From Candidatus Methylomirabilis limnetica (GTDB lineage Bacteria > Methylomirabilota > Methylomirabilia > Methylomirabilales > Methylomirabilaceae), in the NCBI RefSeq assembly GCF_003044035.1, contig NZ_NVQC01000022.1, forward strand, positions 1-32,000: a stretch of 32,000 nucleotides of DNA, given 5' to 3'. Positions 2,017 through 32,000 of this stretch are shown piece after piece. The position numbers were made by a program, and so were the translations under genes. How positions within the stretch are numbered: position 1 is the stretch's first letter; every line of letters begins with the position of its first letter. The notes beneath the pieces are model-generated. The model was not told the DNA's origin. It searched no databases and saw only the letters and a list, made by a program, of their open reading frames with translations.

Positions 2017-2371
2017 TCTAAACACCTTGTAGTTACCTTCTAGCACCTTAATGGTTCTTCCGGCATCCCCTCCCCCCACCGAGAGCCTGCCCCGGACTCG
2101 ATCCGGGGGGGCGGGTGGGGGGCGTGCGCCATGCACTATGTCAGCGGGTGACAAGCAATCGCCCACGCAGCCCAAGAGACGCTATGGGTGACGGTCCGAA
2201 GGCCTCCGTTCACCCCCACCTTCATCCTCCCCCCTCGAAGGGGAGGAACACAGCTACCCTCTTCCCCGGAAGGGATATTGAGCTCCCAGTATACTCACGC
2301 TAAAACCGGAAGAACAAAAAAGGGAGGAAGTCAGAGCCGGAAGAATGTGGGATTATTCCAGAAGTGACGGA

Positions 2372-3592: not shown

Positions 3593-3778
3593 ATGAATCT
3601 GATAGCTAAGATTCACGCGGCCCTGGAGCGCCATTATGGCTCTAAGAAGGCGCGCAGGGCTCTGAGCAATCCACTCGATGGCCTGATCCTTGCCATCCTT
3701 TCCCAAAAGACCCGCAAGACGCATACCCCCGCGCGTGACGACCGTCTCCCCTCCAATCTCTGTCCCTCTGCCCGATGA
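3593..3778 (+). pseudogene. possible remnant of an HhH-GPD (endonuclease III-like) gene, N-terminal ~40 codons only
   Basis: MNLIAKIHAALERHYGSKKARRALSNPLDGLILAILSQKT resembles the N-terminus of Nth-like proteins (...LI.TILSQ.T), and similarity is then lost. The stop overlaps the next gene's start as ATGA (3775-3778). Confidence 0.3.
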
Positions 3779-5319
3779 CATCGGCGTCACTCTTCGGTTT
3801 GGACGAACTGGGGCGCGATCCGCACCTTCTGGCTGTCCAGGCGGTCGCGGCCGGCGGCAGGGTGGGCCCCCTGTATCTGGTCGGTGGGTACCTGCGTGAT
3901 TTTCTGCTTGGCTCCTTCGACGTGGCTAATGACAGGCGTGGCAGGGCGAAGCGGATCGACCTCGATCTGGTGATCTGGGGGAAACCGGAACTGTTCGGTC
4001 GCGATCTGGTCACGGCCCTGGAAGGCAGCCTCATTCGCCTCGAACCAGAGACGGTTCGGGCCATCGTTAGATCCCCGATCGGGGTCGAGGACAGGTCTGC
4101 AGGGATGATCGTCCAGATCGACATCAGTCGATCGAAGGGCGAGACAATCGAAGACGATTTGGCTCTCCGCGACTTTACGGTGAATGCCATGGCCGTGAGG
4201 CTCGACACCCGACACCCGACACCCGACACCCTGTCTTTAATTGATCCGGCGGGTGGGCTGAACGATCTAAAGGAAAAGCGCCTTCGAGCCCTTGCCCCAT
4301 CGGCATTCGATCGCGATCCGCTTCGCCTGATCAGGGCAATTCGCCTGGCTGCAGAGCTTGGCTTCACTATTGAGGAGACTACTCGGCAGTGGATCGTCGA
4401 GCGCGCATCGCTCCTCGGAACAGTAGCCGGGGAGCGTCTGCGAGACGAGCTGTTCAGGGTCCTCGATACGGTCCCCGCAACGCCTTGGATCGAGCACCTC
4501 GACGTCCTGCAGCTTCTGAAGGTGCTGGTCCCGGAGGTAGAGGCGCTCAAATCAGTTCCGGCAAGCATGCCGCATCGTCTGCCCCTCTGGGAACACTCGC
4601 TTCAGACGCTTCGGTCTGTCGAACTGCTGCTCACGAATCTTGAGCAGCTCTTTCCGGAAGACGCCCTCTGGTTACGCGAGCGGCTCGGCCTGGAGATCGA
4701 GGCTGGCGTCACCGAGGCCGCCATCCTCAAGCTGCTGGGGTTCCTGCACGACATCGGCAAGCCGGAGACTCGGAGCATACAACCAGATGGTCGAGTCCGG
4801 TTCCTGGGGCACGAGCAGGCCGGTCTGCCAGTCCTCACTCGCCTATGCGAACGCCTTCGCCTGGGTCGGCGGGCAACAAACCTCGTAACCAACATCGAGC
4901 GATATCATCTGCGGCCGATCCATCTCTCGAGTCTGGCAACGGTCACCGCCAGTGCGCAGTATCGTTTCTTCCGGGAGCTGGGTGATGTTGCCCCCGTTGT
5001 GCTGTTGCACTCCTGGGCGGATCTGCTGGCCACGATCGGTGGGGAAGCCGAGGAGTTCAGCCGGCATCAGGTATTCCTGCGCGAGGCGTTCCGATTCTAC
5101 AGAGCCGAGTTCATGGCAAGCCAGGTAAAGCCCATCGTGCGAGGAGACGATCTGATCAGGATGTTCGGCGTTGTGCCAGGCCCTTTCCTGGGATACGTAC
5201 TTGATCGCTTGCGGGAAGCTCAGGCGACTGGGCTCTTCAACAGCCGCGAGGATGCTCTGGCTTACGTCCAGGAACATCTTGTATCGTGGCAGCAGTCGTT
5301 CGAGGTGCGACCCTCTTGA
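3775..5319 (+). CDS. cca: tRNA nucleotidyltransferase/poly(A) polymerase family protein with C-terminal HD domain (CCA-adding enzyme-like)
   Basis: YLVGGYLRDFLLG and IDLDLV form the nucleotidyltransferase head. RDFTVNAM and DPLRLIRAIRLAAELGF are present. The HD motif is FLHDIGKP...FLGHEQAG. Confidence 0.75.
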   Translation: MTSASLFGLDELGRDPHLLAVQAVAAGGRVGPLYLVGGYLRDFLLGSFDVANDRRGRAKRIDLDLVIWGKPELFGRDLVTALEGSLIRLEPETVRAIVRSPIGVEDRSAGMIVQIDISRSKGETIEDDLALRDFTVNAMAVRLDTRHPTPDTLSLIDPAGGLNDLKEKRLRALAPSAFDRDPLRLIRAIRLAAELGFTIEETTRQWIVERASLLGTVAGERLRDELFRVLDTVPATPWIEHLDVLQLLKVLVPEVEALKSVPASMPHRLPLWEHSLQTLRSVELLLTNLEQLFPEDALWLRERLGLEIEAGVTEAAILKLLGFLHDIGKPETRSIQPDGRVRFLGHEQAGLPVLTRLCERLRLGRRATNLVTNIERYHLRPIHLSSLATVTASAQYRFFRELGDVAPVVLLHSWADLLATIGGEAEEFSRHQVFLREAFRFYRAEFMASQVKPIVRGDDLIRMFGVVPGPFLGYVLDRLREAQATGLFNSREDALAYVQEHLVSWQQSFEVRPS

Positions 5320-5389: not shown

Positions 5390-5464
<75 letters not shown>

Positions 5465-5468
5465 CGTT

Positions 5469-5503
5469 GGTCAGCGTTCAGCCATCAGCGGTCAGGTTTC
5501 AGC
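5469..5503. repeat. tandem heptamer array, 5 x NNTCAGC
   Basis: GGTCAGC GTTCAGC CATCAGC GGTCAGG TTTCAGC lies immediately 3' of the tRNA. It is the inverted counterpart of the array at 5723-5757. Confidence 0.75.
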
Positions 5504-5624: not shown

Positions 5625-5722
5625 AAGCGGAACTGCCGGGTTGAGTGAGTTCGGTTGACGCCGAGTCCTGTTGCTCATACACTGAACACGTTCGGGTTAT
5701 AGCCGTCAGTCTTCAGCGTGTT

Positions 5723-5757
5723 GCTGAGAGCTGATTGCTGATTGCTGGTTGCTGATT
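5723..5757. repeat. tandem heptamer array, 5 x GCTGANN
   Basis: GCTGAGA GCTGATT GCTGATT GCTGGTT GCTGATT ends 20 nt upstream of the pfp ATG. Confidence 0.75.
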
Positions 5758-5776: not shown

Positions 5777-7015
5777 ATGAAAACGCTTGGCATACTGGTT
5801 GGAGGTGGCCCCGCGCCAGGCATTAATGGCGTGATCGCTGCTGCGACGATGGAGGCTCGCAACCATGGGGTACGCGTCCTCGGCTTCTACGATGGGTTCA
5901 AATGGCTTGCACGAGGCGACGTAAGCCACGTGATAGAGCTCGAAATCGATGAGGTGTCTCGGATCCATTTCGAAGGGGGTTCTATCCTTCGAACGGCCAG
6001 GGAGAATCCGACCAAATCCCCGGATGCGCTCCGAAATGTGGTCGAGGCGCTGAACAAATTGGAGGTGTCATGCCTGTTGACAATCGGGGGTGATGACACC
6101 GCCTTCGCGGCGTGTCGGCTATCGGAAGCCGTGCAGGGTCGAGTCGCCGTCGCGCATGTGCCGAAGACGATCGACAACGACCTCCCACTCCCGCAGGAGG
6201 TGGCGACGTTTGGCTTTACGACGGCTTGCAACCTGGGCAAAGAGATCGTTCAGAATCTAATGGAGGATGCGGTGACGGCGAATCGCTGGTTCTTCGTCAC
6301 AGTGATGGGCCGACGGGCGGGCCATCTGGCGCTTGGCATAGGAGGCTCTGCCGGCGCCACTTTAACGGTCATCGGAGAGGAGTTTCCAGAACCGAGGATC
6401 CCCCTTCAGACGCTGGTTGACATCCTGGAAGGCGCTATCATCAAGCGGCGCGCCTCCGGGAAGGGGTACGGCCTGGCGATTCTGAGCGAAGGGCTGGCCG
6501 ATAAACTTGATCCTGCTGATTTCGGCTCGGTTGAGCGGGACGGTTATGGGAATGTCCGTCTCTCGGAGCTTGTGTTGGGGCGAGTGCTGAAAGAGCGGGT
6601 TACTGAAAGCCTTCGCGCGCGAGGTGTCGATGTGACGATCGTAGCTAAAGATCTTGGCTATGAGCTCCGCTGCGCTCCACCCGGCGCACTGGATATCCTA
6701 TATTGCCGCGGTCTTGGCTATTGGGCCACCCGTTTTCTGTTGGACGGTCACACGGAGGCCATGGTGACCATCCAGGGGGGGAAGATGGTCCCAATCCCGT
6801 TTCAGCAGATGTTGGATCATCGGACAGGGAAGATCCGTGTCCGGTACGTTGATATCAACTCCGAGTCGTATCGGACGCTCCGGGCCTATATGATCCGCTT
6901 GGAGCCTCAAGACTTTGAGACGCCAGGGCAGATCGAGACGCTCGCGCATGGCGGGCGCCTCGATCAGGCTGAATTCGTAAGCCGGTTTAGTTATCTTGGC
7001 GATCGACGCTCATAG
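5777..7015 (+). CDS. pfp: 6-phosphofructokinase, pyrophosphate-dependent type by signature residues
   Basis: GILVGGGPAPGINGVI, TIGGDDT (Asp where ATP-PFKs have GGDG), VPKTIDNDL (Lys where ATP-PFKs have Gly) and MGRRAGHLAL. Confidence 0.85.
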   Translation: MKTLGILVGGGPAPGINGVIAAATMEARNHGVRVLGFYDGFKWLARGDVSHVIELEIDEVSRIHFEGGSILRTARENPTKSPDALRNVVEALNKLEVSCLLTIGGDDTAFAACRLSEAVQGRVAVAHVPKTIDNDLPLPQEVATFGFTTACNLGKEIVQNLMEDAVTANRWFFVTVMGRRAGHLALGIGGSAGATLTVIGEEFPEPRIPLQTLVDILEGAIIKRRASGKGYGLAILSEGLADKLDPADFGSVERDGYGNVRLSELVLGRVLKERVTESLRARGVDVTIVAKDLGYELRCAPPGALDILYCRGLGYWATRFLLDGHTEAMVTIQGGKMVPIPFQQMLDHRTGKIRVRYVDINSESYRTLRAYMIRLEPQDFETPGQIETLAHGGRLDQAEFVSRFSYLGDRRS

Positions 7016-11175: not shown

Positions 11176-11380
11176 AATGAACTACCCCGCGGCAAGCTGC
11201 GGGGTAGCGTCTTCTGTTCTGGCCCGTCATTTCGTGCGTGACACGCCTGCCCCGTACTTGATACGGGGCCTGTCCCGTACTGGATACGGGAGAATCCAGT
11301 CGGGCCCGCTGGATACCGGCTTCCGCCGGTATGACGAACTCGCGGCAAGCCGCAGGGTATCGACCATCGACGAGAATGAA
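11176..11380. repeat. MITE/REP-like multi-hairpin element, copy B (inverted relative to copy A)
   Basis: Reverse-complement match to 739-930. It carries one extra hairpin (TCCCGTACTGGATACGGGA) and a ~17-nt insertion. It lies between convergent genes. Confidence 0.8.
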
Positions 11381-12122: not shown

Positions 12123-13505
12123 ATGGCAAAAACAAAGATCTTAATCGCAGAGGACGAACCTGCCTCCAGAGCGGGGCTCCAGGAGCTTCTCACCAGTTGG
12201 GGTTACACGGTCACTGCCGCTGCTAACGGTCAGGAGGCTCTGGAGAAGGCGGCCGAGTTGCAGCCCTCTCTCATCATCGCTGATCTCGTCATGCCAAAGA
12301 TGGACGGCCTCACGCTGCTGCGAACTCTCAAGAATGACGCTACCCTCCCCTCCCTGATCATTTTGACCGGCCAGGGGACCATCGAGACTGCGGTCCAGGC
12401 GATGCAAGAAGGGGCCTACGACTACCTCACCAAGCCGGTCGATGTCGGGCGACTCCGCGTCCTTGTAGAGAAAGCGCTCGAGCGTGGAGCTGTGCTGAAG
12501 GAGGTCAAGCTGCTGCGCCACCAGGTCCGTCACCTGGGCCGGTTCGGCCGACTGATTGGCAATACGCGTGCTATGCAGGAGGTCTACCGACTACTTGAAT
12601 TGTCGGCGCCTAGCACTGCGCCGGTCTTCATCTGGGGGGAAAGCGGAACCGGAAAGGAGTTGGCGGCCAGGACGATTCACGACCTCTCCCCACGGAAGCA
12701 AAGCCCCTTCGTCCCGATCAACTGCGCCGCTATTCCGGAAACGCTGCTGGAGAGCGAAGTCTTCGGTCACGAGAAAGGAGCGTTTACCGGCGCTACCGAG
12801 CGGAGAATGGGATGCTTTGAGCTGGCGGATGGCGGGACCATCTTTCTTGATGAGGTCGCGGAGATGAAGGTCTCCACCCAGGCCAAGTTCCTCCGGATCC
12901 TTCAGGAGGGCAGCTTTCGGCGGCTGGGCGGAGCCAGGGAAATCCACGTGGATGTCCGGGTGGTCGCCGCAACGAATAAGGATCCGGCGCAAACTGTCCA
13001 GGATGGATTGCTCCGCGAGGATCTCTACTATCGGCTGAACGTGTTCAGTGTCCACCTCCCACCCCTGCGGGAGCGGCGCGAGGACCTCTCACTCCTCATC
13101 CGATCGTTTATCGAGGAGTTTAAAGAGAAATATGGTACGGCGGTGCGCAGCGTGGACGCAGAAGCGCTCGCGCTCCTAACCAGGCACGATTGGCCCGGCA
13201 ACGTCCGGGAGCTTCGGAATGTGCTGGAGCGGGCCGTCCTTGTGGCCCAGGGAAACATGATCACCTCAGCCGATCTGCCGCCGAACTTCCCCAGTCAGCG
13301 TCCTGGGCCGACCCCGGAGATCAACATCCCCGTCGGGATCACGATTGATGCGGCAGAAAAAGCCTTGATTCTCACAACGCTGGAACGCACGAACCAGAAC
13401 AAGACCCGGGCTGCGGAGATCCTTGGGGTCAGCCTGAAGACGCTGCACAACAAGTTAGCCCGCTATCGGGAAGAAGCCTCCACTTTGGCTAACGCCCAGG
13501 AATAA
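12123..13505 (+). CDS. sigma-54-dependent response regulator (NtrC family: receiver + AAA+ + Fis HTH)
   Basis: Receiver ILIAEDE...IIADLVMPKMDG...KP. AAA+ domain GESGTGKELAARTIH, GAFTGA and WPGNVRELRNV. HTH RAAEILGVSLKTLHNKL. Confidence 0.92.
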   Translation: MAKTKILIAEDEPASRAGLQELLTSWGYTVTAAANGQEALEKAAELQPSLIIADLVMPKMDGLTLLRTLKNDATLPSLIILTGQGTIETAVQAMQEGAYDYLTKPVDVGRLRVLVEKALERGAVLKEVKLLRHQVRHLGRFGRLIGNTRAMQEVYRLLELSAPSTAPVFIWGESGTGKELAARTIHDLSPRKQSPFVPINCAAIPETLLESEVFGHEKGAFTGATERRMGCFELADGGTIFLDEVAEMKVSTQAKFLRILQEGSFRRLGGAREIHVDVRVVAATNKDPAQTVQDGLLREDLYYRLNVFSVHLPPLRERREDLSLLIRSFIEEFKEKYGTAVRSVDAEALALLTRHDWPGNVRELRNVLERAVLVAQGNMITSADLPPNFPSQRPGPTPEINIPVGITIDAAEKALILTTLERTNQNKTRAAEILGVSLKTLHNKLARYREEASTLANAQE

Positions 13506-13511
13506 GTCCAC

Positions 13512-15317
13512 ATGACACTCGGCATCCGAGGCAAGGAAATCCTCGGCATCAGTCTTCTGGTCTTCCTGATCGTCTCGCTCGCGTTAGTTGTTCACATTTC
13601 GACTACTACCCGCCTGGTCGTTCAGCATGCGGCGGAAAAGGGCAAACTGCAGGCTCAGCAGATCTTCTCCGGCAGCACTCGGGTGATGGCTCGTGCACGG
13701 GGGAGCCGTCCAGAGGTTGCTCTGCGACATGACCAAGAGCTCCGCGCGCTTCTCGATGCCAGCATCGGCTATTCCCCGCACCTGGTATATGCCATGATCA
13801 CTGATCGCTCGGATACAGTCCTCATGCACAGCCAGCGTTCCCACGAAGGGCACAAGGCCCCATCCCGGACGAAGATCGAACAGTTGCAGGAGATGAACCC
13901 TCTTCGTCAGCTCCTGGCGCTAGCCCGCCAGCGCCAGGTATTTGAGACGACGCTGCCTCTCAGCCTCAACGACCGGCCCTTCGGGGCGATCCGACTCGGG
14001 CTGGCTGGAAGCCTCCTGTGGAACGAACTCTCACCCGCCATCTGGGGGAGCCTGCTACTGGCGCTGTTCACCTTCCCGCTGGCCTGGGCCGTGGCCTTTG
14101 GCCTCTCCAGCCTTGTCCTGGTGCCGTTGCGCCAGATTGCCCAAGGCGTTGACCGGATGGCGCGCGGCGAGTTCGACACGCCAGTCGCGTTTGATCGTCA
14201 TGATGAAGTCGGGGAGATTGCCGAAAAACTCAACCTCCTGGGACGCCAGCTCCAGGAGGACCGGTCCTCCCTGATGAGTGAAAAGACCAGGCTGGAAGGG
14301 ATCGTGCATTGCCTCGAAGACGCCATCATTCTGCTGAACAGAGAGCAGGCGGTCATCTTCGCCAATCCGGTGGCCGAGGCCCTGCTGGCCTGCCCCCTCA
14401 TGAATGCTGTCGGTCAATCGTTGGGGCATATCCTGGGGGAGGCTCACCCCTTAGCCGAGGCAGTGGGCGAAGTCTTCCTGCGCCAACAGCCGGTAAGAAA
14501 CCTTGCGCTTACGGTGCCGGGCGACCGCGACACACCCCTTGATATCCTGGCCTCCGCCTACCCAATCCTGGACAAGAACGGTGTGGTCGGGGGAATGATC
14601 CTCTTAAAAAACACCGAACCGCTCCGACAGATCCAGTCGCTCGTGGACTATTCTCGAAAGCTAGCCGACCTTGGGAAGCTCACCTCGGGTGTTGCCCACG
14701 AAGTCAAAAATCCACTGAACGCCATGATCATTCATCTCGAGCTGTTAAAACAGAAGCTCAACCGCCCTACGGAGGATGTAGCTCGAAGCCTGGACGTGCT
14801 GGGGAAAGAGATTTATCGCCTCGACCGTGTGGTGCAGGGCTTTCTTCGTTTTGTCCGTCCTCAGACCCTTGAGCTTCGCCCTCTGGACCCGAACAAGCTA
14901 CTGCAGGAGGTCGCCCAGTTGACCGAAGCACAAGGAACGTCTCGGGGGATCGCGTTCAGCTTTTGTCTTGATGAGGAGATTCCTCCGATCAACGCCGATC
15001 ATGAGTTACTTCGGCAGGCCTTCCTCAACCTAGTCCTGAATGCCTGTCAGGCTATGCCAGACGGAGGAACGGTAACCCTTACGACAGACCGGACCGCTGA
15101 GGGCAGGATCTGTGCCCACGTAATCGATCAGGGGGTAGGCATCCCTCCTGAGGACCTCGACAAGATCTTCCGTCTCTATTATACTACCAAGACGGATGGA
15201 AATGGGATCGGGCTTTCGTTGGTCTACCGGATCGTTCAGATGCACGGTGGGACTATCGAGGTGGACTCGAAGATGGGGCAAGGGACCACGATGACGGTCA
15301 GCTTTCCTACCTCTTAG
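13512..15317 (+). CDS. sensor histidine kinase (TM-periplasmic/TM-HAMP-PAS-HisKA-HATPase)
   Basis: Two hydrophobic segments. H-box SGVAHEVKNPLN. N box LNLVLNACQAM. G boxes DQGVGI and GNGIGLS. Confidence 0.9.
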   Translation: MTLGIRGKEILGISLLVFLIVSLALVVHISTTTRLVVQHAAEKGKLQAQQIFSGSTRVMARARGSRPEVALRHDQELRALLDASIGYSPHLVYAMITDRSDTVLMHSQRSHEGHKAPSRTKIEQLQEMNPLRQLLALARQRQVFETTLPLSLNDRPFGAIRLGLAGSLLWNELSPAIWGSLLLALFTFPLAWAVAFGLSSLVLVPLRQIAQGVDRMARGEFDTPVAFDRHDEVGEIAEKLNLLGRQLQEDRSSLMSEKTRLEGIVHCLEDAIILLNREQAVIFANPVAEALLACPLMNAVGQSLGHILGEAHPLAEAVGEVFLRQQPVRNLALTVPGDRDTPLDILASAYPILDKNGVVGGMILLKNTEPLRQIQSLVDYSRKLADLGKLTSGVAHEVKNPLNAMIIHLELLKQKLNRPTEDVARSLDVLGKEIYRLDRVVQGFLRFVRPQTLELRPLDPNKLLQEVAQLTEAQGTSRGIAFSFCLDEEIPPINADHELLRQAFLNLVLNACQAMPDGGTVTLTTDRTAEGRICAHVIDQGVGIPPEDLDKIFRLYYTTKTDGNGIGLSLVYRIVQMHGGTIEVDSKMGQGTTMTVSFPTS

Positions 15318-20391: not shown

Positions 20392-20471
20392 CAATTCATC
20401 AATGCCCGCGACCGACCATTTCTCTCTCTTTCTCCTTGACAGCGGGATCAAATCACGGTATCACGCGTCAA

Positions 20472-20635
20472 GTGTAGTGTCTCACAAATACCTTTATAAT
20501 CCGTTCGCGGTGAGCAGTTCGACAGGCTCAGGGCAGGCTTGTCGAATCCATGAACGGAACTCATTGAAATGCTTCACCCTTCGACAGGCTCAGGGCGAAC
20601 GGATTGTGTAAAACAGCGCTGGATGCACTACACTA
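20472..20635. repeat. nested inverted-repeat (REP-like) element in the egtD leader
   Basis: Outer inverted repeat is AGTGTAGTG (20472-20480) with CACTACACT (20627-20635). Inner inverted repeat is AATCCGTTCGC with GCGAACGGATT. The direct repeat TTCGACAGGCTCAGGGC occurs twice. The element encodes the junk-peptide motif FTLRQAQGER. Confidence 0.7.
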
Positions 20636-23976: not shown

Positions 23977-24064
23977 GGACCAGTGTAGTGCGTCTAACAC
24001 TTCTTTACATTTACCGTGCGCCCTGAGCATGTTGAAGGGCTCACCAAATATATTGCCGTGTGTC

Positions 24065-25824: not shown

Positions 25825-26490
25825 TCAGATGGTTTTCTCCGGCCAGGAGCAGAGGTGGCGGACCGGGCAGTGCGGGCAGTCTGGCTTCCTGGCCATGCAG
25901 ATGCGCCGACCGTGGAAGACAAGCAGGTGGGTGAGGAGGGTCCACTTCTCTTTCGGCACAACCCGGCAGAGCTGTTGCTCTATCTCATCCGGCTTGTTGC
26001 TGGCGGCCAGGCCAAGGCGGTTTGCCACCCGCGTGACATGGGTGTCCACCGCGATCCCCTCGGTGATGCCGAAGGCGTTGCCCAGGACGATGTTGGCCGT
26101 CTTGCGCCATACGCCGGGCAGCGTGATTAGTTCCTCCATCGTCTGCGGCACTAGCCCGCCGAACTCCTCGACCAGCTTCTTACAGCAGCCGATGATGCTC
26201 CTGGCCTTGTTCCGGTAAAAGCCTGTCGATCGGATCGCTTCCTCCATCTCTACCGGGTCAGCATCGGCAAGCACCTGTGGGGTCGGATACCGCTTGAACA
26301 ACCCCTTCGTAACCTGATTCACCCGCTCGTCCGTGCACTGGGCAGCCAGGATTGTCGCGATGAGTAGTTGGAATGGGTTCGTGAAGTCGAGCGTCACGTG
26401 GGCATCGGGATAGGATGACTCGATGATGGCCAGGATTTTCTTGGCCTTAGCTGGGGTAGCGGTGAGGATATCGCTTTTTTGCTGTTTCAC
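25825..26490 (-). CDS. nth: endonuclease III
   Basis: FQLLIATILAAQCTD, HhH-GPD motif LPGVWRKTANIVLG...VDTHV, and Fe-S cluster C-x6-C-x2-C-x5-C (CMARKPDCPHCPVRHLC). The GTG start overlaps the pyrD TGA. Confidence 0.92.
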   Translation of the reverse strand: MKQQKSDILTATPAKAKKILAIIESSYPDAHVTLDFTNPFQLLIATILAAQCTDERVNQVTKGLFKRYPTPQVLADADPVEMEEAIRSTGFYRNKARSIIGCCKKLVEEFGGLVPQTMEELITLPGVWRKTANIVLGNAFGITEGIAVDTHVTRVANRLGLAASNKPDEIEQQLCRVVPKEKWTLLTHLLVFHGRRICMARKPDCPHCPVRHLCSWPEKTI

Positions 26491-27458
26491 CTTGATCCCC
26501 CTGCTACCTCCCGCGGGGTACCGGTGAGATCCAGGGAGCCAATGAGATCGGTTACACGTTTGATCTTGTGGTCGATTAGATACGCTTCGATCCCATCAAT
26601 GACCCGTGTAGCACTGCTTGGTGAGGTGAAGTTGGCCGTCCCAACCGCCACTGCCGTGGCCCCCGCGATAAGGAACTCGAGCGCGTCGTCCGCCGTCATG
26701 ATCCCACCCATCCCAATGAGCGGCAGCTTCACCGCTCGCGCTACCTCCCACACCATTCGGACAGCGATCGGCCGGATGGCGGGGCCGGAGAGCCCGCCGG
26801 TCACGTTGCCGAGCTTCGGCCGCCGGCTTCGTACGTCGATGGCCATACCGATCAGCGTGTTGATGAGGGAGAGCGCGTCGGCCCCACCCTCTGCCAGCGC
26901 TCTGGCAATCTCAGCAACATCAGTGACGTTCGGGGAGAGCTTTGGAATGAGTGGAAGTCGAGTAGCCTGTCGCACGCGCGCGACCAGTTTGTTGGCCAGC
27001 ACAGCATTGCAGCCAAAAATCAAGCCATCAGCCACGTTGGGACACGAGATGTTCAATTCGATCCCGCTGACTCCCTCCTGATCGCTCAGCCGCTTCGCCA
27101 GCTCAACATAGTCCTCGACCGACTCCCCGGCGATATTGACGATGACGGGGGGCCCAAGCCCGATAAGATAGGGAAGTTTCTCTCTGAGGAAGGCCTCGAT
27201 GCCAACATTCTGAAGGCCGATTGCGTTCAGCATCCCGGCCGGGGTCTCGACAATCCGGGAAGGCTGGGCTCCGACGCGAGGGTGCAGCGTGATGGTCTTG
27301 ACCACGATGGCTCCCAGGCGTGAGAGATCCAGGTACGACTCAAACTCCTGAGCATAGCCGAAAGTCCCGGAGGCGGTCATTACCGGGTTCCGCATGGAGA
27401 TGCCGGCAACAGTCACGCGCAGGTCTGGTCGTTTGACGCGGCTCACGACAGGTTTCAT
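26487..27458 (-). CDS. pyrD: dihydroorotate dehydrogenase catalytic subunit (class 1B)
   Basis: NPVMTASGTFGY, GAIVVKT, ELNISCPN, LIPKLSPN, GADALSLINT, GGLSGPAIRPIA and GMGGI. ATG 27458 overlaps the pabC stop as ATGA. The ORF is open to 27482, but that part is repeat sequence. Confidence 0.92.
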   Translation of the reverse strand: MKPVVSRVKRPDLRVTVAGISMRNPVMTASGTFGYAQEFESYLDLSRLGAIVVKTITLHPRVGAQPSRIVETPAGMLNAIGLQNVGIEAFLREKLPYLIGLGPPVIVNIAGESVEDYVELAKRLSDQEGVSGIELNISCPNVADGLIFGCNAVLANKLVARVRQATRLPLIPKLSPNVTDVAEIARALAEGGADALSLINTLIGMAIDVRSRRPKLGNVTGGLSGPAIRPIAVRMVWEVARAVKLPLIGMGGIMTADDALEFLIAGATAVAVGTANFTSPSSATRVIDGIEAYLIDHKIKRVTDLIGSLDLTGTPREVAGGSR

Positions 27459-28468
27459 GATTTCGCGCCTCGCATCTCGCACCCTTCAAATCCCCCCGTG
27501 CCCCCCTTTCGTAAAGGGGGGGTGGGGGGTTTTGCACCTCGCATCCCTTGTGTCCGCTCTTCCTCCACGGCTGTTCGGTAGCACCTTTGGAGACGTTGCG
27601 TCACAGGGCCGGGGCTTCCGGTACCGATCTTATTGCCGTCGATTGCGACAAGCGGCATGATCTCCTTCAGAGAGCCGGTCAGGAACGCCTCCTCGGACGC
27701 GAGGAGGTCCTGAAGCGGCAGAGGCGCCTCGCGGAGGATCAGGCCCTCCTTTTTCGTGAGCTCGATTACTACTTCCCTCGTAATGCCCGGTAAGAGCCCC
27801 GAGCTTAAGGGAGGGGTTGTCAGCACCCCCTTCGAGAACGAGAACAGATTACTCGTGGCCCCCTCGACGACGCAGTTATCGCGATCGACAAACAGGGCCT
27901 CCTGAGCCCCTTCGCGTTGCGCCTGTACCATCGCCAGCATGTTATAGAGGTAGCCAAGCGACTTGATTTGGAGTGGGTTGAATGGGCTCCCCCAGTGAAC
28001 CATGACCGCGTCGATCCCGACCTGCTGACGTTCGGCGATCCCAGCATACAAGGGCCTGGCGACCAACAGCAGCGTGGGTGAAGGGGGCACGTCGGGAGGC
28101 AGGAGGGAACCGAGCACGTCCGGGCCTCTCGTAACCGTCAACCGCAAAGAGGCATCAGCGGCCCGCAGGCTACTCCGCCGGAGCAGTTGACCCATCACCT
28201 GCCGCCACTCGCCAACGTCATCTTCGAACGGAATCCCGATCTGATCGGCGCCCTTCTTGAGGCGAGCGAGGTGGCGCTCAAGGCCAAAGACCCACCCGGC
28301 ATACGCTCGGATGGTTTCGAAGAGGCCATCGCCATACGAGAACCCGCGGTCGAACGCCGACACCTTCGCCCGCTCGGCCTGCACGTAGCGCCCATTCAGA
28401 TAGACAATTGCGTTCATTGCGTCTTTTGCGGCCATTGCGTTGATTGCGTCCATTGCGTTACGCGGCAC
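27455..28468 (-). CDS. pabC: class IV aminotransferase-fold protein, probably aminodeoxychorismate lyase
   Basis: VSAFDRGFSYGDGLFETIRAY, SNLFSFSKGVLTTPP and LPGITREVV, immediately downstream of pabB. The N-terminus is uncertain (GTG 28468; ATGs at 28453, 28435 and 28417). The C-terminal ~29 aa are repeat-encoded. Confidence 0.75.
   Translation of the reverse strand: MPRNAMDAINAMAAKDAMNAIVYLNGRYVQAERAKVSAFDRGFSYGDGLFETIRAYAGWVFGLERHLARLKKGADQIGIPFEDDVGEWRQVMGQLLRRSSLRAADASLRLTVTRGPDVLGSLLPPDVPPSPTLLLVARPLYAGIAERQQVGIDAVMVHWGSPFNPLQIKSLGYLYNMLAMVQAQREGAQEALFVDRDNCVVEGATSNLFSFSKGVLTTPPLSSGLLPGITREVVIELTKKEGLILREAPLPLQDLLASEEAFLTGSLKEIMPLVAIDGNKIGTGSPGPVTQRLQRCYRTAVEEERTQGMRGAKPPTPPLRKGGTGGFEGCEMRGAKS
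27468..27546. repeat. G-run palindromic element, copy R1
   Basis: CAAATCCCCCCGTGCCCCCCTTTCGTAAAGGGGGGGTGGGGGGTTTTGCACCTCGCA forms a long imperfect hairpin. It lies within the last ~29 codons of the pabC ORF. Confidence 0.85.
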
Positions 28469-28507
28469 GCTATGAACGCGTCACGCTGCACGCAATAGAC
28501 GCAATTA
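28407..28507. repeat. 9-bp-periodic junction cassette X (pabB|pabC)
   Basis: Six units of ATTGCGT(N2) lie at 28407, 28416, 28425, 28434, 28443 and 28452. They are followed by GGCACGCT..CACGCTGCACGCAATAGACGCAAT. A 16-bp inverted repeat pairs 28443-28458 with 28490-28505 (15 of 16 positions). Confidence 0.85.
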
Positions 28508-29932
28508 CCTTCCAAAACCAGCGCCCACGCCGAGGGTCCGAAAGAAGGTTTCGGCCTTTAACAACGTCTCCTCGTACTCTCGTATCGGCGAAGAGTCGGC
28601 CACGATCCCGCCGCCGGTCTGAAAATAGATCCGTCTGCCTGTCACGATGGCCGTCCGGATAGCGACGTTCAGCTCCATCGCGCCGGAGAACCCGATGAAC
28701 CCGATCGCCCCGGTGTAGAGGCCACGAGCCGTTGGCTCCACTTCGTCGATCACCTCCATCGCGCGGATCTTGGGGGCTCCGGTGATGGAGCCGCCAGGGA
28801 AGGTGGCCCGCAAACAGTCGATCGGGTCCGCCCCCTCATCGAGAATGCCTGCCACGGTTGAGACCATGTGGTGGAGGGTGTGGTAGGTCTCGATCGTCTC
28901 GAACTGCTCCACGTGCACAGAGCCGACCCGACAGATCCTACCCAAATCGTTTCGCTCCAGGTCCACGATCATCACATGTTCGGCGCGCTCCTTGGGATCG
29001 CGACGCAGGTGGCCAATGATGCGCGCATCATCCTCTAGCGTCATCCCGCGAGGGTGGGTCCCCTTTATCGGGCAGGTCGAGATCCGATTCCCCTCCACCA
29101 GCAGGAACCGTTCCGGGGAGTTGGACAGCACATGGAAGGGACCACAGTGAAGGTACGCCCCGAAGGACGCGGGGAAGCGGGTCCGAAGGCGCCGGTAGAG
29201 GGCCCAGGGATCGCCCGAAAAGTGAGTAGCGAAGCGCTGCGAGATGTTGGCCTGATAAATGTCACCCGCCGCGATGTATTCCAACACCGCCTCTAGCGCC
29301 TTGAAGTAGTACGCTTTTGACATGTTGCTCTCGAGGGGAGCCTCGGTGTGCGGCAAATCAGGCGGCGTACTACGAGCGATCAGCCGGGCCTGCCGGATCA
29401 AGTCAAGGCCTTCCTGCAACCGCTCCCGAGCTCGCCGCTCCCGGTCGGCACCGGGGGGGAGAGGCAAGCCGGACGAGGTGACGAGAAGCCGTCCCGTTCC
29501 CGGTTCGAACCAGAAGAGGAGGTCGTAGAAATGGATCACGCAGTCCGGAAGCCCAAGGTCGTCCACCGCCACGGCCGGCAGTATTTCGAGGTGGTGTCGA
29601 AGGTCGTAACCGAAGTAGCCGATGGCGCCGGCTGCTGGAAATTCCCGAACATGCGTGATGTCACCAAACTGCCGGAGAAGCGTCTGAAGGTGCCGGAATG
29701 GATCGCCGGTGAGTCGGCTTAGCCTACCCTCCCGCAAGATGGTGATCTCCTGCCCTTTCGCCGAGAAGGTGAGGAACGGATCATAACCAAAGCACGTAGC
29801 CCGCCAGTGATTGGTAGCCCAAGGATCAGCATCCAGGAGACTGGAACCGGGCCGGGCGGCGACCAGACCAAAAAGATCCGCGATGGCGGGCGGATTTGGG
29901 ACTTCCTCTATTATTGCGTCCATTGCGTCCAT
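28505..29932 (-). CDS. pabB: aminodeoxychorismate synthase component I (chorismate-binding, TrpE/PabB family)
   Basis: GDIYQANISQRF, SNSPERFL, IKGT.PRG, ERAEHVMIVDLERND, PGGSITGAPKIRAME, RGLYTGAIG and IRT....GGGIVADS. Confidence 0.85.
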   Translation of the reverse strand: MDAMDAIIEEVPNPPAIADLFGLVAARPGSSLLDADPWATNHWRATCFGYDPFLTFSAKGQEITILREGRLSRLTGDPFRHLQTLLRQFGDITHVREFPAAGAIGYFGYDLRHHLEILPAVAVDDLGLPDCVIHFYDLLFWFEPGTGRLLVTSSGLPLPPGADRERRARERLQEGLDLIRQARLIARSTPPDLPHTEAPLESNMSKAYYFKALEAVLEYIAAGDIYQANISQRFATHFSGDPWALYRRLRTRFPASFGAYLHCGPFHVLSNSPERFLLVEGNRISTCPIKGTHPRGMTLEDDARIIGHLRRDPKERAEHVMIVDLERNDLGRICRVGSVHVEQFETIETYHTLHHMVSTVAGILDEGADPIDCLRATFPGGSITGAPKIRAMEVIDEVEPTARGLYTGAIGFIGFSGAMELNVAIRTAIVTGRRIYFQTGGGIVADSSPIREYEETLLKAETFFRTLGVGAGFGR

Positions 29933-30004
29933 TGCGTCTGTCGCGTCGGTGCGTTCATGGCGTTCATGGCGTTTATTGCGTTTGTGGCACGCTGCACGCG
30001 ATTA
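29913..30004. repeat. 9-bp-periodic junction cassette Y (pyrK|pabB)
   Basis: Eight units with a GCGT core lie at 29916, 29925, 29934, 29943, 29951, 29960, 29969 and 29978. They are followed by GGCACGCTGCACGCGATTAA, which includes the pyrK stop codon. This cassette is homologous to cassette X. Confidence 0.85.
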
Positions 30005-30967
30005 AGGCCAGAGGATGTCGTAACCGTCAAAGACTGGCCCGTCCTTGCAAACGAGGCGGTAGGTCCGACCTGCTTGGCTGGCAGACAGGTCTTGTTCGCC
30101 ACCCTTCACCGGTACGACGCAGCCCATGCAGGCCCCGAAGCCGCAGGCCATGCTCGCTTCCATGGAGGCCTGATAGGGCAGCTCATATTTTTCGGCAATC
30201 GTCGCAAGAGCCGCCAGCATGGGATGCGGGCCGCAGGCGTAAATCCCCCCAACCCCCCTTTTATAAAGGGGGGAACTGGCGGATTTGGGGTGCGAGGTGT
30301 TGAGATACTGCTCCAGCAGTTCGGTCACCAACCCTTTCTGACCGGCGCTGCCATCTTCTGTGGCCACGTGAATCTTTGCGCCGACCCGCTTAAAATCGAC
30401 GGTACACAGCAGATCAGCCTTAGATCTCCCGCCGAGAAAGACGGTCATCTTCGTTTCGCGTGATGCTCGGCGCGTGGCAAGACCCTCAGCAAGGGCGGCA
30501 ATCGGAGGGACACCGATTCCGCCAGCAACCAGGAACACCTCCGTTGCGGAACGTGGAACCTCAAAGCCGTTCCCCAAGGGGCCGAGAGCCCGGAGGGACC
30601 TACCTGGACGCATCGTCGCCAGGAGCGCCGTCCCGCGGCCACACACCTTGTACAAAATCTCTACCTCGCACCCCGGATCGGTGTCCGGGGCAGGCCCCGC
30701 ACGCCAAATCCCCCCGTGCCCCTTAAATCCCCCCGTGCCCCCCTTTGATAAAGGGGGGTTGGGGGGGGTTTTTACACTTCGGATGCTCAAGGCTCGAGGC
30801 AGCAGCGGATCCAGTCCATCTGTACATCCAAGCATGAGAAACTGGCCAGGGCGGAATCTGGCCAGGTATCGAGGGCCAACCAGACGCATCGAAAAGTACT
30901 CCGGTGCGATCTGCCGATTGGACACCACTTCAACTTGGACCTCAGATGCCGTCGCCATTCCCCGCAC
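30002..30967 (-). CDS. pyrK: dihydroorotate dehydrogenase electron-transfer subunit (FAD/2Fe-2S), carrying two in-frame repeat insertions
   Basis: RPGQFLML, LPRALSI, GPLGNGF, VAGGIGVPP, IYACGP and 2Fe-2S motif CGFGACMGCV...VCKDGPVF. The protein is about 45 aa longer than typical PyrK because of the elements at 30236-30298 and 30664-30785. The start is GTG 30967 or ATG 30958. Confidence 0.88.
   Translation of the reverse strand: MRGMATASEVQVEVVSNRQIAPEYFSMRLVGPRYLARFRPGQFLMLGCTDGLDPLLPRALSIRSVKTPPNPPLSKGGTGGFKGHGGIWRAGPAPDTDPGCEVEILYKVCGRGTALLATMRPGRSLRALGPLGNGFEVPRSATEVFLVAGGIGVPPIAALAEGLATRRASRETKMTVFLGGRSKADLLCTVDFKRVGAKIHVATEDGSAGQKGLVTELLEQYLNTSHPKSASSPLYKRGVGGIYACGPHPMLAALATIAEKYELPYQASMEASMACGFGACMGCVVPVKGGEQDLSASQAGRTYRLVCKDGPVFDGYDILWP
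30236..30298. repeat. G-run palindromic element, copy R2 (inverted orientation), inside pyrK
   Basis: AAATCCCCCCAACCCCCCTTTTATAAAGGGGGGAACTGGCGGATTTGGGGTGCGAGGTG is translated in the pyrK frame as KSASSPLYKRGVGG. Confidence 0.85.
30664..30785. repeat. G-run palindromic element, copy R3 (partially duplicated, with extra CCCCGGA/TCCGGGG hairpin), inside pyrK
   Basis: CCTCGCACCCCGGATCGGTGTCCGGGG...AAATCCCCCCGTGCCCCTTAAATCCCCCCGTGCCCCCCTTTGATAAAGGGGGGTTGGGGGGGGTTTTTACACTTCGGA is translated in frame as KTPPNPPLSKGGTGGFKGHGGIWRAGPAPDTDPG. Confidence 0.85.
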
Positions 30968-31030
30968 CCCTCAAATCCCCCCGTGCCCCCCTTTACCAAA
31001 GGGGGGTTGGAGGGGGTTTTGCACTTCGCA
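30962..31030. repeat. G-run palindromic element, copy R4, between carB stop and pyrK start
   Basis: CCGCACCCCTCAAATCCCCCCGTGCCCCCCTTTACCAAAGGGGGGTTGGAGGGGGTTTTGCACTTCGCA. Its end overlaps the pyrK start region. Confidence 0.85.
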
Positions 31031-31056
31031 CATAGGGCAGCCACAAGGGACTGCCC

Positions 31057-32000
31057 CTACGCGCACCCGGCGTCTGAGTGATACTCCTGCAGTGCCTTGA
31101 CCCTCAACGTCCCGTGCTGCATCGCCTGGATCGCCTCCACCGCCGCCTGCGCCGCGGCCATAGTGGTAAAGTAGGGAATGCCCATGGTGATCGCTGTCCG
31201 TCGGATGGAGTAAGAGTCAAGACGAGCATGGTGGCCCTCCGGCGTATTAATGACCAGGCCAATCTCGCCATTCTTCATCTTATCCACGATATGTGGGCGC
31301 ACGCCGTCGATGACCTTGGCCACTGCCTTCACGGTCACCCCGCCGCCTTCTAACGAGGCCGCAGTCCCAGCCGTCGCCACGAGCTGAAAGCCCAGATCCG
31401 CAAGCCGTCGTGCCAGAAGCACGATATGCAGCTTGTCACTATCCCGCACACTCAGGAAGACCGTCCCTTTCAGGGGAAGGGCGCCACTAGCCCCCACCTG
31501 CGATTTGGCAAAGGCCAGCCCGAATTCGCGGTCGATCCCCATGACCTCACCGGTCGATTTCATCTCCGGCCCTAAGAGGGCATCGACTCCAGGAAACTTC
31601 ACAAAAGGCAGGACCGCCTCCTTAACCGCCACATGGCGAAGCTTAGGCTCCTCGGTAAAGCCCAGGTCTTTGAGGCTCATCCCGGCCATGATCTTGGCCG
31701 CCAGTTTGGCTAGGGGGACACCGATCGCCTTGCTGACGAAGGGGACGGTTCGAGAAGCGCGGGGATTGACCTCCAGGACGTAGACTACATGGTCTTTGAT
31801 CGCGAACTGGATGTTGATCAGGCCAACTACCCCAAGCTCCAGCGCCATAGCCTTCGTCTGGACCCGGATCTGATCGAGCAACGGCTGTTGCACTGACCGA
31901 GGTGGCAGAGAACAGGCCGAGTCTCCGGAGTGGACTCCAGCCGCCTCAATGTGCTCCATGATCCCGCCGATCACGACCTCCTGGCCGTCGCACAGGGCAT
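31057..32000 (-). CDS. carB: carbamoyl-phosphate synthase large subunit, C-terminal part (continues beyond window)
   Basis: IMEHIEAAGVHSGDSACSLPP, INIQFAIKD..VYVLEVNPRASRTVPFVSKA.G and the MGS-like allosteric domain (GTVFLSV.D.DK...LA..L...GF.L.AT.GTA). The frame is open to the window edge. Confidence 0.92.
   Translation of the reverse strand, partial: ALCDGQEVVIGGIMEHIEAAGVHSGDSACSLPPRSVQQPLLDQIRVQTKAMALELGVVGLINIQFAIKDHVVYVLEVNPRASRTVPFVSKAIGVPLAKLAAKIMAGMSLKDLGFTEEPKLRHVAVKEAVLPFVKFPGVDALLGPEMKSTGEVMGIDREFGLAFAKSQVGASGALPLKGTVFLSVRDSDKLHIVLLARRLADLGFQLVATAGTAASLEGGGVTVKAVAKVIDGVRPHIVDKMKNGEIGLVINTPEGHHARLDSYSIRRTAITMGIPYFTTMAAAQAAVEAIQAMQHGTLRVKALQEYHSDAGCA

Follow-up and report, generated by a model that had tools for sequence, protein, structure and literature searches.

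How does a short palindromic DNA sequence come to be read in frame within essential enzymes, and what kind of element is it? The question is raised by a 32-kb stretch of the genome of Candidatus Methylomirabilis limnetica (phylum NC10), referred to here as the window, in which the pyr operon carries four copies of a G-run palindrome, named R1 to R4. In this study, we describe the anatomy of these repeats, their in-frame position in pyrK and at the end of a pabC-like gene, their absence from orthologues, their turnover between strains, and their distribution over phyla and genes. R1 to R4 are probably small, non-autonomous, selfish palindromic DNA of the repetitive extragenic palindromic (REP) or MITE (miniature inverted-repeat transposable element) type, tolerated as loop filler. 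They behave like the Rickettsia palindromic elements (RPEs) and like intragenic REPs; the sequence features that define those two families are not found in them.

The consensus of the four copies is AAAT-C6-GTG-C6TTT-N3-AAAG6-TT-G6-TTTT, and the mean column identity of their alignment is 76%. Their number and places agree with the original prediction, which was made from the letters of the window: the core CCCCCCTTTNNNAAAGGGGGG occurs exactly four times in the 32 kb, against 0.02 occurrences expected from shuffles, and a scan of the window with a relaxed hairpin pattern returned the same four copies only (0.03 expected). The palindrome proper measures 46-50 nt, between the limits AAAT and ATTT or TTTT. 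The size of about 65 bp first assigned to it includes the flanking heptamer-like units (CTCGCAY on the plus strand), of which each palindrome has one to three. A fifth copy was located just outside the window, in the pyrC-carA spacer (L121:4857), so that the operon has five copies in 8.6 kb and the rest of the window (~28 kb) has none. In what follows, L121 is the M. limnetica locus that includes the window copies, L124 is the locus of a near-identical strain, and L125 and L314 to L317 are orthologous loci.

Two of the copies extend PyrK, the electron-transfer subunit of dihydroorotate dehydrogenase B. The window protein, which matches an NCBI protein of Ca. Methylomirabilis limnetica at 100% identity and is also called as a gene in L121, was compared with solved L. 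lactis PyrK (1EP3_B, 5KSW_B), query residues 12-64 corresponding to chain residues 8-59 and 104-319 to 69-261. At site 1, from SI(R/S)S to ILY, the window has 39 residues where the L. lactis crystal structure has 9. At site 2, before (I/L)Y(A/T)CG, the solved chain shows a gap of 13-14 residues, and the product of R2, ...PKSASSPLYKRGVGG..., lies directly before the IYACGP motif of PyrK. The net gain is about 30 residues at site 1 and about 13 at site 2. When 34 NC10 PyrK orthologues were aligned, the protein was conserved throughout except at both sites and at the C-terminus, with the R..S motif for flavin adenine dinucleotide (FAD) and the four [2Fe-2S] cysteines invariant; the R2 and R3 segments are absent from the distant NC10 orthologues as they are from solved PyrK. 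The extension of PyrK by R3 and R2 is thereby borne out, and so is the placing of both in loops. In an AlphaFold model built from the 34-orthologue alignment (mean predicted local distance difference test score, pLDDT, 69), the site-1 insert is a coil between strands 58-66 and 100-107, with pLDDT below 50 for residues 74-96, and the site-2 insert is placed between helix 214-225 and strand 239-245 and includes a short helix (pLDDT 65-72). An assembly artefact is countered by independent assemblies from separate sequencing runs, which encode an identical PyrK protein, inserts included. The inserts had further been described as free of stops, and they do lie in frame in an intact pyrK; their stop-freedom is no greater than chance, with four of the six frames open in R1, R2 and R4 and two in R3.

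The other two copies in the window lie at gene junctions. R1 forms the C-terminal tail of the PabC-like protein and the ATGA overlap with pyrD (27455-27458), where the PabC-like stop overlaps the pyrD start, as had been proposed. Orthologues end earlier, with ...EEERAQGVRGA and a stop in L124 and ...RAHVGAHCVRPCGA and a stop in L125, and the pabC-pyrD junction of these two loci has a GTAG-type hairpin (related GTAGGGGCGC) and a spacer where the window has R1. In the window, the PabC-like frame continues through R1 to ...KPPTPPLRKGGTGGFEGCEMRGAKS and its stop, giving a new tail of roughly 24 residues. R4 ends just before the GAGGGG ribosome-binding site of pyrK. Since the ribosome-binding sequence GAGGGGTGCGGGGAATG is also found in orthologues without R4, this copy sits just upstream of an ancestral ribosome-binding site, and not on the start codon, contrary to its first placing on the pyrK start region. 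Adjoining R4 is a GTAG-headed, REP-like hairpin (GTAGGGGCAGTCCCTTGTGGCTGCCCTA, minus strand, 31033..31060), whose TAG is the carB stop codon. It belongs to a separate repeat family and is missing from the orthologous spacer of a further locus (L291), in which the orthologous copy of R4 is present.

Such positions raise the possibility that the repeats are functional cis-elements of the pyr operon, acting in RNA processing or stability, in CTP/GTP-sensitive pausing or attenuation, or in translational coupling, with R4 before the pyrK ribosome-binding site and R1 at the pabC-pyrD overlap as coupling points. The crowding of five copies into the operon would fit this, as would the location of three of the five at gene junctions and the very stable hairpins that the copies form in the mRNA sense (-31 to -36 kcal/mol over 69-76 nt; R1, -35.8 kcal/mol, z = -2.9). 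The z-scores of R3 and R4 are unremarkable, at about -1.1. The sense-strand sequence after the hairpins is ATTTGA, with no U-tract, and a terminator scan detected none on the sense strand, flagging only R3 on the antisense (+) strand. At gathering scores, Rfam returned a single tRNA over the whole window, the PyrR-binding attenuator being unmatched, and at permissive E-values it returned only chance-level miRNA models over 30150-31100. Close relatives lack R1, R3 and R4, and the same element occurs in unrelated genes (among them those for PriA, Mur ligase, RecJ and LeuRS, the leucyl-tRNA synthetase), in both orientations, in all frames and in many phyla. A regulatory role in the operon is therefore considered very unlikely.

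Filled and empty alleles were compared across the seven orthologous loci (Table 1), and strains whose sequences agree to 98-100% over most of the locus were found to differ in the copies they carry. At site 2, the palindrome and 3 nt (about 49 nt) have taken the place of 22 nt from an array of three heptamers. At the position of R4, L314 and L125 have the same flanks with 11-12 nt (GGGTCCGATGT) instead, 11 nt in L314. Overall, at R4, site 1 and site 2 the palindrome substitutes for 11-32 nt of heptamer array between conserved flanks. No target-site duplication was found at these three places, where direct repeats of the GTGC type are indistinguishable from the array. CGCACYT units flank both sides of the Methylomirabilis-type metagenome copies. 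The segments originally called in-frame inserts are thus extra with respect to orthologues, and at every place with alignable flanks the palindrome replaces part of a heptamer array and is not a clean insertion.

The nearest strain illustrates the turnover. L124 is 98-100% identical to the window in most 150-nt windows of carB, the 3' two-thirds of pyrK, and pabB, and diverges in a patch of ~540 bp from R4 to R3 (66-90% identity; L121 9795-10336) and in a second stretch of about 600-900 bp around R1 (~74% at the element; L121 about 12996-13885). It is without R4 and R1, and its site 1 holds another palindrome, so that three of the four copies are absent or replaced. The divergent patches at R4-R3 and at R1 suggest either that recombination had its breakpoints at the repeats or that the metagenome assembly is a chimera. 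R3 itself is a composite (30664-30780), whose 25-nt hairpin module GCCTGCCCCGGACACCGATCCGGGG (30671-30695, an inverted-repeat pair with 2085-2113) recurs at 2085-2108 and at 11245-11291 and forms the centre of the palindrome that fills site 1 in L124. The sharing of a sub-module with the first of these places had been predicted correctly; a hairpin at about 2228-2248 (CCTCCCCCCTCGAAGGGGAGG), which had also been assigned to the family, does not belong to it. The palindrome seen at site 1 of L124 in place of R3 represents a second palindrome family, present in the window at 2066..2122 with C-run and G-run arms around GCCTGCCCCGGACTCGATCCGGGG and having the hairpin module in common with R3. Its motif GCCTGTCCCC is also present in published Geobacter palindromes.

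Every site-1 and site-2 allele has a length divisible by three, and homologous copies at site 2 use different internal frames (PLYKRGVGG against PPFTKGGYWG) through compensating indels; together these observations indicate that the frame is selected and the peptide is not. The insert peptides accordingly appear to be neutral. That peptides of the PPLxKGGxGGF kind are adaptive in PyrK and PabC, for example as new interaction surfaces, is highly improbable, even though the site-2 insert is kept in orthologues down to about 65% identity and its model reaches moderate confidence. Homologous copies read in different frames give different peptides, the content of site 1 is wholly different between near-identical strains, the site-1 insert is modelled as low-confidence coil, and the same DNA gives similar peptides in unrelated proteins.

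The element is not peculiar to M. limnetica. When the 18-base core was scanned in one genome per species (596 Gb), at least 120 loci were found, against roughly 9 sites expected by chance at equal base frequencies by our own arithmetic. From 253 oriented units, a ~34-nt unit was defined, AAAT-C6(7)-N2-3-C6TTT-N3-AAAG6, with A at position -1 of its head in 99% and at -2 in 85% of the units, and with nothing conserved past its edges. The matches listed come from more than 10 phyla, from isolates and metagenome-assembled genomes alike, and include Desulfobacterota, Nitrospirota, Nitrospinota, Methylomirabilota, Beta- and Gammaproteobacteria, Chloroflexota, Acidobacteriota, Planctomycetota, Elusimicrobiota, Ignavibacteria/Kapaibacteria, Deinococcota and others. 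Isolates among them are Chromatium okenii LaCa, Thiorhodococcus mannitoliphagus, Thiospirillum jenense, Lysobacter Root916 and Root690, Luteimonas R10, Pelotalea chapellei, Geomesophilobacter sediminis and a Pasteurellaceae strain. Phage contigs of IMG/VR carry the core as well (at least 145 viral matches), many of the viral matches coming from one Mu-like phage group. In 123 of the 144 genome matches listed (85%) and 119 of the 145 viral ones (82%), the hairpin has a second module (ATC5-6 or G5-6AT), for which the search did not ask, 1-4 nt away and mostly to one side of it alone. Some units stand alone, some form head-to-head or tail-to-tail pairs, and some are fused as in the window palindrome. 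The original remark that no description was known for this kind of organism agrees with a literature search by organism, which returned none of such repeats in Methylomirabilis; the ~34-nt unit is spread across many phyla and phage contigs. A literature search by sequence strings found no description of the unit in main texts, and blastn of R4 against PLSDB gave no match, the query probably having been masked as low complexity.

Open frames (at least 150 nt on each side) span 31% of the genome, 48% of the viral and 38% of the metagenome GTG-subfamily copies listed, as compared with 64-70% of random positions in the same loci. The copies are thus depleted in coding sequence and not excluded from it, the pattern expected from purifying selection on a selfish insert. 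Intragenic units use all three reading frames (22/15/6), and the units have 4.6 of 6 frames open against 4.5 for random 34-mers. In phyla other than that of M. limnetica, units lie within domains of RecJ (DHH domain), LeuRS (editing domain), the threonine synthase ThrC (PALP domain) and Tex (central region), and in linkers of PurL, a radical-SAM (S-adenosylmethionine) protein and, twice, CbiG-CobJ. On Methylomirabilis-type metagenome contigs, the hosts are PriA, a radical-SAM/DUF2344 protein and a Mur ligase, which carries the unit at one and the same site in three lineages. In C. okenii (L034), a unit stands between the domains of a hybrid histidine kinase (...KPPFAKGGLGGFQ...), and on phage contigs (L136, L132, L130, L126) the hosts are terminase-like, Mu-portal-like and DksA/TraR-like open reading frames (ORFs), named by eye.

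The closest behavioural parallel is that named in the original prediction, the RPEs, which are AT-rich palindromes. They measure ~100-150 bp and are given as restricted to Rickettsia in the summary of Ogata et al. (2000, 2002) provided by PMC10969869. As RPEs do, the present repeats form a modular, dispersed palindromic family that lies in frame in unrelated housekeeping genes, essential ones included, in a manner compatible with function, and also between genes. They are set apart by description: the window palindrome is 46-50 nt long, has G6/C6 runs, sits in heptamer arrays and has an NC10 host, and its ~34-nt unit is common to many phyla and phage contigs. REPs with GTAG or CGTC heads have been recorded within ORFs, those of replication and repair genes among them (Di Nocera et al. 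2013, PMC3733652). The ~34-nt unit falls in the 20-40-nt range of the imperfect palindromes of REPs and of their inverted doublets (REPINs), occurs singly or as inverted pairs, has a tag at one end, and is mostly intergenic with a minority of copies in ORFs. Unlike REPs of the type mobilised by REP-associated tyrosine transposases (RAYTs), it has the head AAAT and C6 instead of GTAG/CGTC, the separate hairpin at 31033-31060 alone being GTAG-headed; and this unit keeps its sequence across phyla, whereas a REP family usually belongs to one species or genus.

Heptamers and palindromes have been met together in Geobacter. Table S6 of the G. bemidjiensis genome paper (PMC2996986) lists, without comment, a six-copy intergenic 'conserved sequence' AAGTCCCCCTTTGCGAAGGGGGATTAGGGGGATTTC with the same layout as the present unit (C5-6TTT-N3-AAG5-6, a 2-4-nt spacer and G5-6ATTT), the runs there being of five bases. 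The Geobacter papers (G. metallireducens, Aklujkar et al. 2009, PMC2700814; 2010, PMC2996986) describe heptanucleotide arrays and an intragenic palindrome that causes no frameshift; that intragenic family is a different palindrome (RGGGGACTGGCTCCGC...), and the copies of AAGTCCCCCTTTGCGAAGGGGGATTAGGGGGATTTC are intergenic. Tandem heptamers whose origin is unexplained have been reported from Beggiatoaceae, cyanobacteria, Bacteroidetes and Xanthomonas (TAACTGA, PMC4679880; GGGNATC, PMC4692102). The arrays at the pyr locus resemble these in being short tandem 7-nt repeats near gene ends or starts, sometimes intragenic, and in occurring across distant lineages; they differ in heptamer sequence and in the embedded G-run palindrome, which those papers do not describe. 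Short tandemly repeated repetitive (STRR) sequences of cyanobacteria are likewise tandem heptamers.

Three further heptamer arrays were noted in the window. A perfect four-copy array of CGACACC (4203-4231) lies in frame in the head domain of a CCA-adding enzyme/poly(A) polymerase (gene 3775-5319), where it is read ...DTRHPTPDT..., and the same heptamer and peptide form PyrK site 2 in L125. A GGTCAGC array of 3.9 copies (5469-5495) directly follows a tRNA gene (5390-5461), and a TTGCTGA array of 5.3 copies (5721-5757) lies upstream of a phosphofructokinase gene, its end 20 nt from the start at 5777, a position that recalls the start-proximal TAACTGA arrays of Beggiatoaceae (PMC4679880).

MITEs that form in-frame fusions include the enterobacterial repetitive intergenic consensus (ERIC), Coxiella QMITE1 and the Anabaena MITEs (reviewed in PMC10969869). 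Like them, the present repeats are non-autonomous, have inverted-repeat ends and can be read through in host ORFs. MITEs are 70-300 bp long, with terminal inverted repeats related to insertion sequences (ISs) and with target-site duplications; none of these features was found in the present repeats, elements bounded by the units having been looked for in about 2.5 Mb of flanking DNA. Clusters of mobile GC-rich hairpins and the 'byp' elements, both found within genes of yeast mitochondria, offer another parallel, as very short GC-rich hairpins that colonise protein-coding genes; byp elements are reportedly skipped by the ribosome. These are organellar and eukaryotic, and every pyrK allele keeps its frame, which argues for read-through rather than byp-style skipping. 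Among other candidates, integron attC sites were rejected because the RYYYAAC/GTTRRRY ends are absent, and CRISPR repeats, dif/Xer sites and explanations by G-quadruplexes alone were considered and dropped.

If not copied by homology, the repeats could be true miniature transposons, mobilised in trans by an HUH/Y1 enzyme (RAYT or IS200/IS605-like) encoded by the genome or by a phage. What it recognises would be the C6TTT-N3-AAAG6 hairpin with the 5' AAATC6 tag, and the heptamer flanks would be its preferred target, not a vehicle. The asymmetric layout of tag and hairpin with sharp edges recalls the GTAG-tagged REPs, the single, paired or fused units recall REP doublets, and a sequence that stays constant over phyla and phage contigs speaks for a conserved protein that recognises it. 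Also in line with it is a ~95-nt composite, TAACCCCCATGCCCAGGCGCGGGCACAACGAAACATGA-[G-run palindrome]-CATATAAA, found at 17 places with differing flanks in groundwater and sediment metagenomes (loci including L247, L248, L254, L256, L260, L262, L279, L288, L292 and L294), beside whose 17 copies no gene recurs. Against this stand the lack of a target-site duplication or a clean empty site at the three alignable positions, the absence of the GTAG/CGTC head that defines RAYT-type REPs (PMC3733652), and the want of a recurrent neighbouring transposase or of an IS200-like match (a weak test). No RAYT was found in the loci flanking the units, and across about 2.5 Mb of such DNA no complete element with units at its ends was observed; the recurrent neighbours are shared structural genes of Mu-like phages and generic signalling domains only. 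We consider a transposon of this sort unlikely.

The reading we prefer, selfish palindromic DNA tolerated as loop filler, can be set out as follows. In M. limnetica, two ~34-nt units would have fused into a 46-50-nt palindrome with perfect arms. Transcription and translation would turn the pyrK copies into unconstrained filler of two surface loops, with no function at the protein level; at the PabC-like end, R1 would have removed the old stop and created the tail and the ATGA overlap with pyrD; and R4, in the carB-pyrK spacer, would simply be tolerated. Essential genes would retain only those copies that keep the frame and have no stop in the frame used. In Methylomirabilis, the palindrome may travel with its flanking heptamer units (GTGCGAR/CGCACYT) and reach other heptamer arrays as copies made through short-homology recombination, gene conversion or template switching, the arrays serving as landing pads in intergenic spacers and permissive protein loops. 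This route of copying is offered tentatively; it would explain the replacement of arrays, the missing target-site duplication and the repeated reuse of sites with differing content, and it also fits the recombination patches.

Several observations weigh against this reading. Intragenic units show no bias in length modulo 3 (chi-square p = 0.5), so that either the unit alone is not the insertion unit or the coding classification is noisy. Heptamer arrays lie within about 90 nt of 2-4% of the units outside Methylomirabilis, against 0.4-0.6% at random by a strict test, and given this rarity the landing-pad model may be lineage-specific. Homology-templated copying cannot explain why the unit is conserved base for base in phyla where its flanks are unrelated; candidates for this constancy are a hairpin-specific enzyme or frequent horizontal transfer, for example by phages. 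Clustered ORFs within 2.5 kb of 289 core matches and the 17 composites included no recurrent transposase, and tblastn with an IS200 TnpA query, a weak probe, gave no match in 2.5 Mb around the units. The concentration of all five copies in one operon could reflect a local function rather than spread, L124 is a metagenome assembly and could be a strain chimera, and translation of the inserts is presumed. A bolder extension, that the ~34-nt unit is a previously unrecognised pan-bacterial mini-element which propagates in a novel manner (by a hairpin enzyme or by templated copying) and lengthens loops of essential enzymes, is rather doubtful at present.

The repeats and host genes are listed in Table 1 together with the alleles. 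The gene block is on the minus strand (ORF calls and Pfam), and the order pyrR-like/pyrB/pyrC/carA/carB/pyrK/pabB/pabC/pyrD/nth is found on a 242-kb M. limnetica contig and in relatives.

Table 1. Repeats, host genes and site alleles at the pyr locus, with coordinates in the 32-kb window
Feature	Position	Strand	Length	Remarks
R1	27488..27533	+		AAAT-C6-GTG-C6TTT-CGT-AAAG7-T-G6-TTTT; coding (-) strand gives ...KPPTPPLRKGGTGGF... in the PabC-like tail
R1 left flank	27464..27487	+		heptamer-like units CGCGCCT CGCATCT CGCACCC
R1 right flank	27534-27544			matching unit GCACCTCGCAT
R2	30241..30286	-		inverted, one arm decayed; plus strand AAATC6-AA-C6TTT-TAT-AAAG6-AACTGGCGG-ATTT
R3 core	30725..30773	+		complete palindrome, AAATC6-GTG-C6TTT-GAT-AAAG6-TT-G8-T5; PyrK ...KTPPNPPLSKGGTGGF...
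R3 extra, duplicate of one arm	30706..30724	+	~18-19 nt	AAATCCCCCCGTGCCCCTT, read ...KGHGGIW...; extra relative to the single-palindrome alleles of L315 and L317
R3 extra, hairpin module	30671..30695	-	25 nt	GCCTGCCCCGGACACCGATCCGGGG, read ...AGPAPDTDPG...
R4	30973..31020	+		carB-pyrK spacer; G-run arm ends 14 nt upstream of the annotated pyrK ATG (30958-30956)
carB 3' end	31057-32000	-		ORF, Pfam
pyrK	30002..30958	-	318 aa annotated	dihydroorotate dehydrogenase B, electron-transfer subunit; PF10418, PF00175; carries R2 and R3
pabB-like	28505..29932	-		chorismate-binding enzyme, between pyrK and the PabC-like gene; ORF, Pfam
pabC-like	27455..28453	-	332 aa	class IV aminotransferase; adjoins the pabB-like gene; tail from R1
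pyrD	26487..27458	-	323 aa annotated	dihydroorotate dehydrogenase catalytic subunit
Site 2, empty (L125)			63 nt	three heptamers CACCCGA
Site 2, empty (L315)			63 nt	three heptamers CGACGCT
Site 2, empty (L316)			63 nt	three heptamers CGCACCT
Site 2, filled (window (L121), L124, L314, L317)			90 nt	palindrome and residual heptamer
Site 1 (L314, L316)			78 nt	three GGTGCGA units
Site 1 (L315, L317)			96 nt	one palindrome
Site 1 (L125)			111 nt	GTTCAAA heptamers
Site 1 (window)			141 nt	R3 composite
Site 1 (L124)			162 nt	different palindrome

Other variable or repeated features were seen in the operon and the window. The carA-carB gap holds a DUF4258/DUF2283 gene pair in M. limnetica (L121 6141-6589) and a methyltransferase gene in relatives (L125 5999-6658, L315 1903-2562), a swap that is another sign of operon spacers being exchange points. 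Tandem 9-bp arrays (ATTGCGTCC and ATGGCGTTC variants; 28407-28458 and 29904-29982) extend over the 5' ends of both the PabC-like and the pabB-like gene and are read in frame as N-terminal MDAINAMAAKDAMNAI... and MDAMDAI...; the pyrK-pabB array is longer in the near-identical strain L124. A ~170-bp multi-hairpin element is present as two inverted copies ~10 kb apart (741-930 and 11176-11365), 89-94% complementary, with GCCTG(C/T)CCCGTAC...ACGGG hairpins related to the R3 module, and a 16-nt direct repeat, CTACTGGGGGTTCATT, stands on either side of the first copy. Finally, full and partial copies of a MITE-like element with the ends AGTGTAGTG...CACTACACT and inner palindromes of the TTCGACAGGCTCAGGGCGAACGG type (20471-20634 and 23982-24039) bracket a three-gene cluster with a Methyltransf_33 gene and an ABC transporter.

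The interest of the repeats rests on Methylomirabilis less than on conservation across phyla, entry into essential genes, and movement without a known means. In a methane oxidiser of environmental importance, essential enzymes tolerate selfish DNA in loops that turn over between near-identical strains; with PyrK, PriA, a Mur ligase and the CCA-adding enzyme among those affected, repeat-driven evolution of loops can be observed outside Rickettsia. For annotation, the repeats are a likely source of noise, in the form of spurious ORFs of the PPFxKGG type and misplaced start or stop codons. For assembly, they coincide with recombination patches and may cause errors in the assembly and binning of metagenomes. 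The polymorphic alleles of the pyr locus make both mobilisation and the link to heptamer arrays testable. If the pan-bacterial unit is real, it would link the origin of heptamer arrays with the existence of protein-coding palindromes, and would explain why several ORFs (housekeeping, phage and sensor-kinase) encode peptides of the PPLxKGG type. That the unit lies in housekeeping genes and phage genes over many phyla suggests a source of variation in protein length that is widespread and largely unreported.

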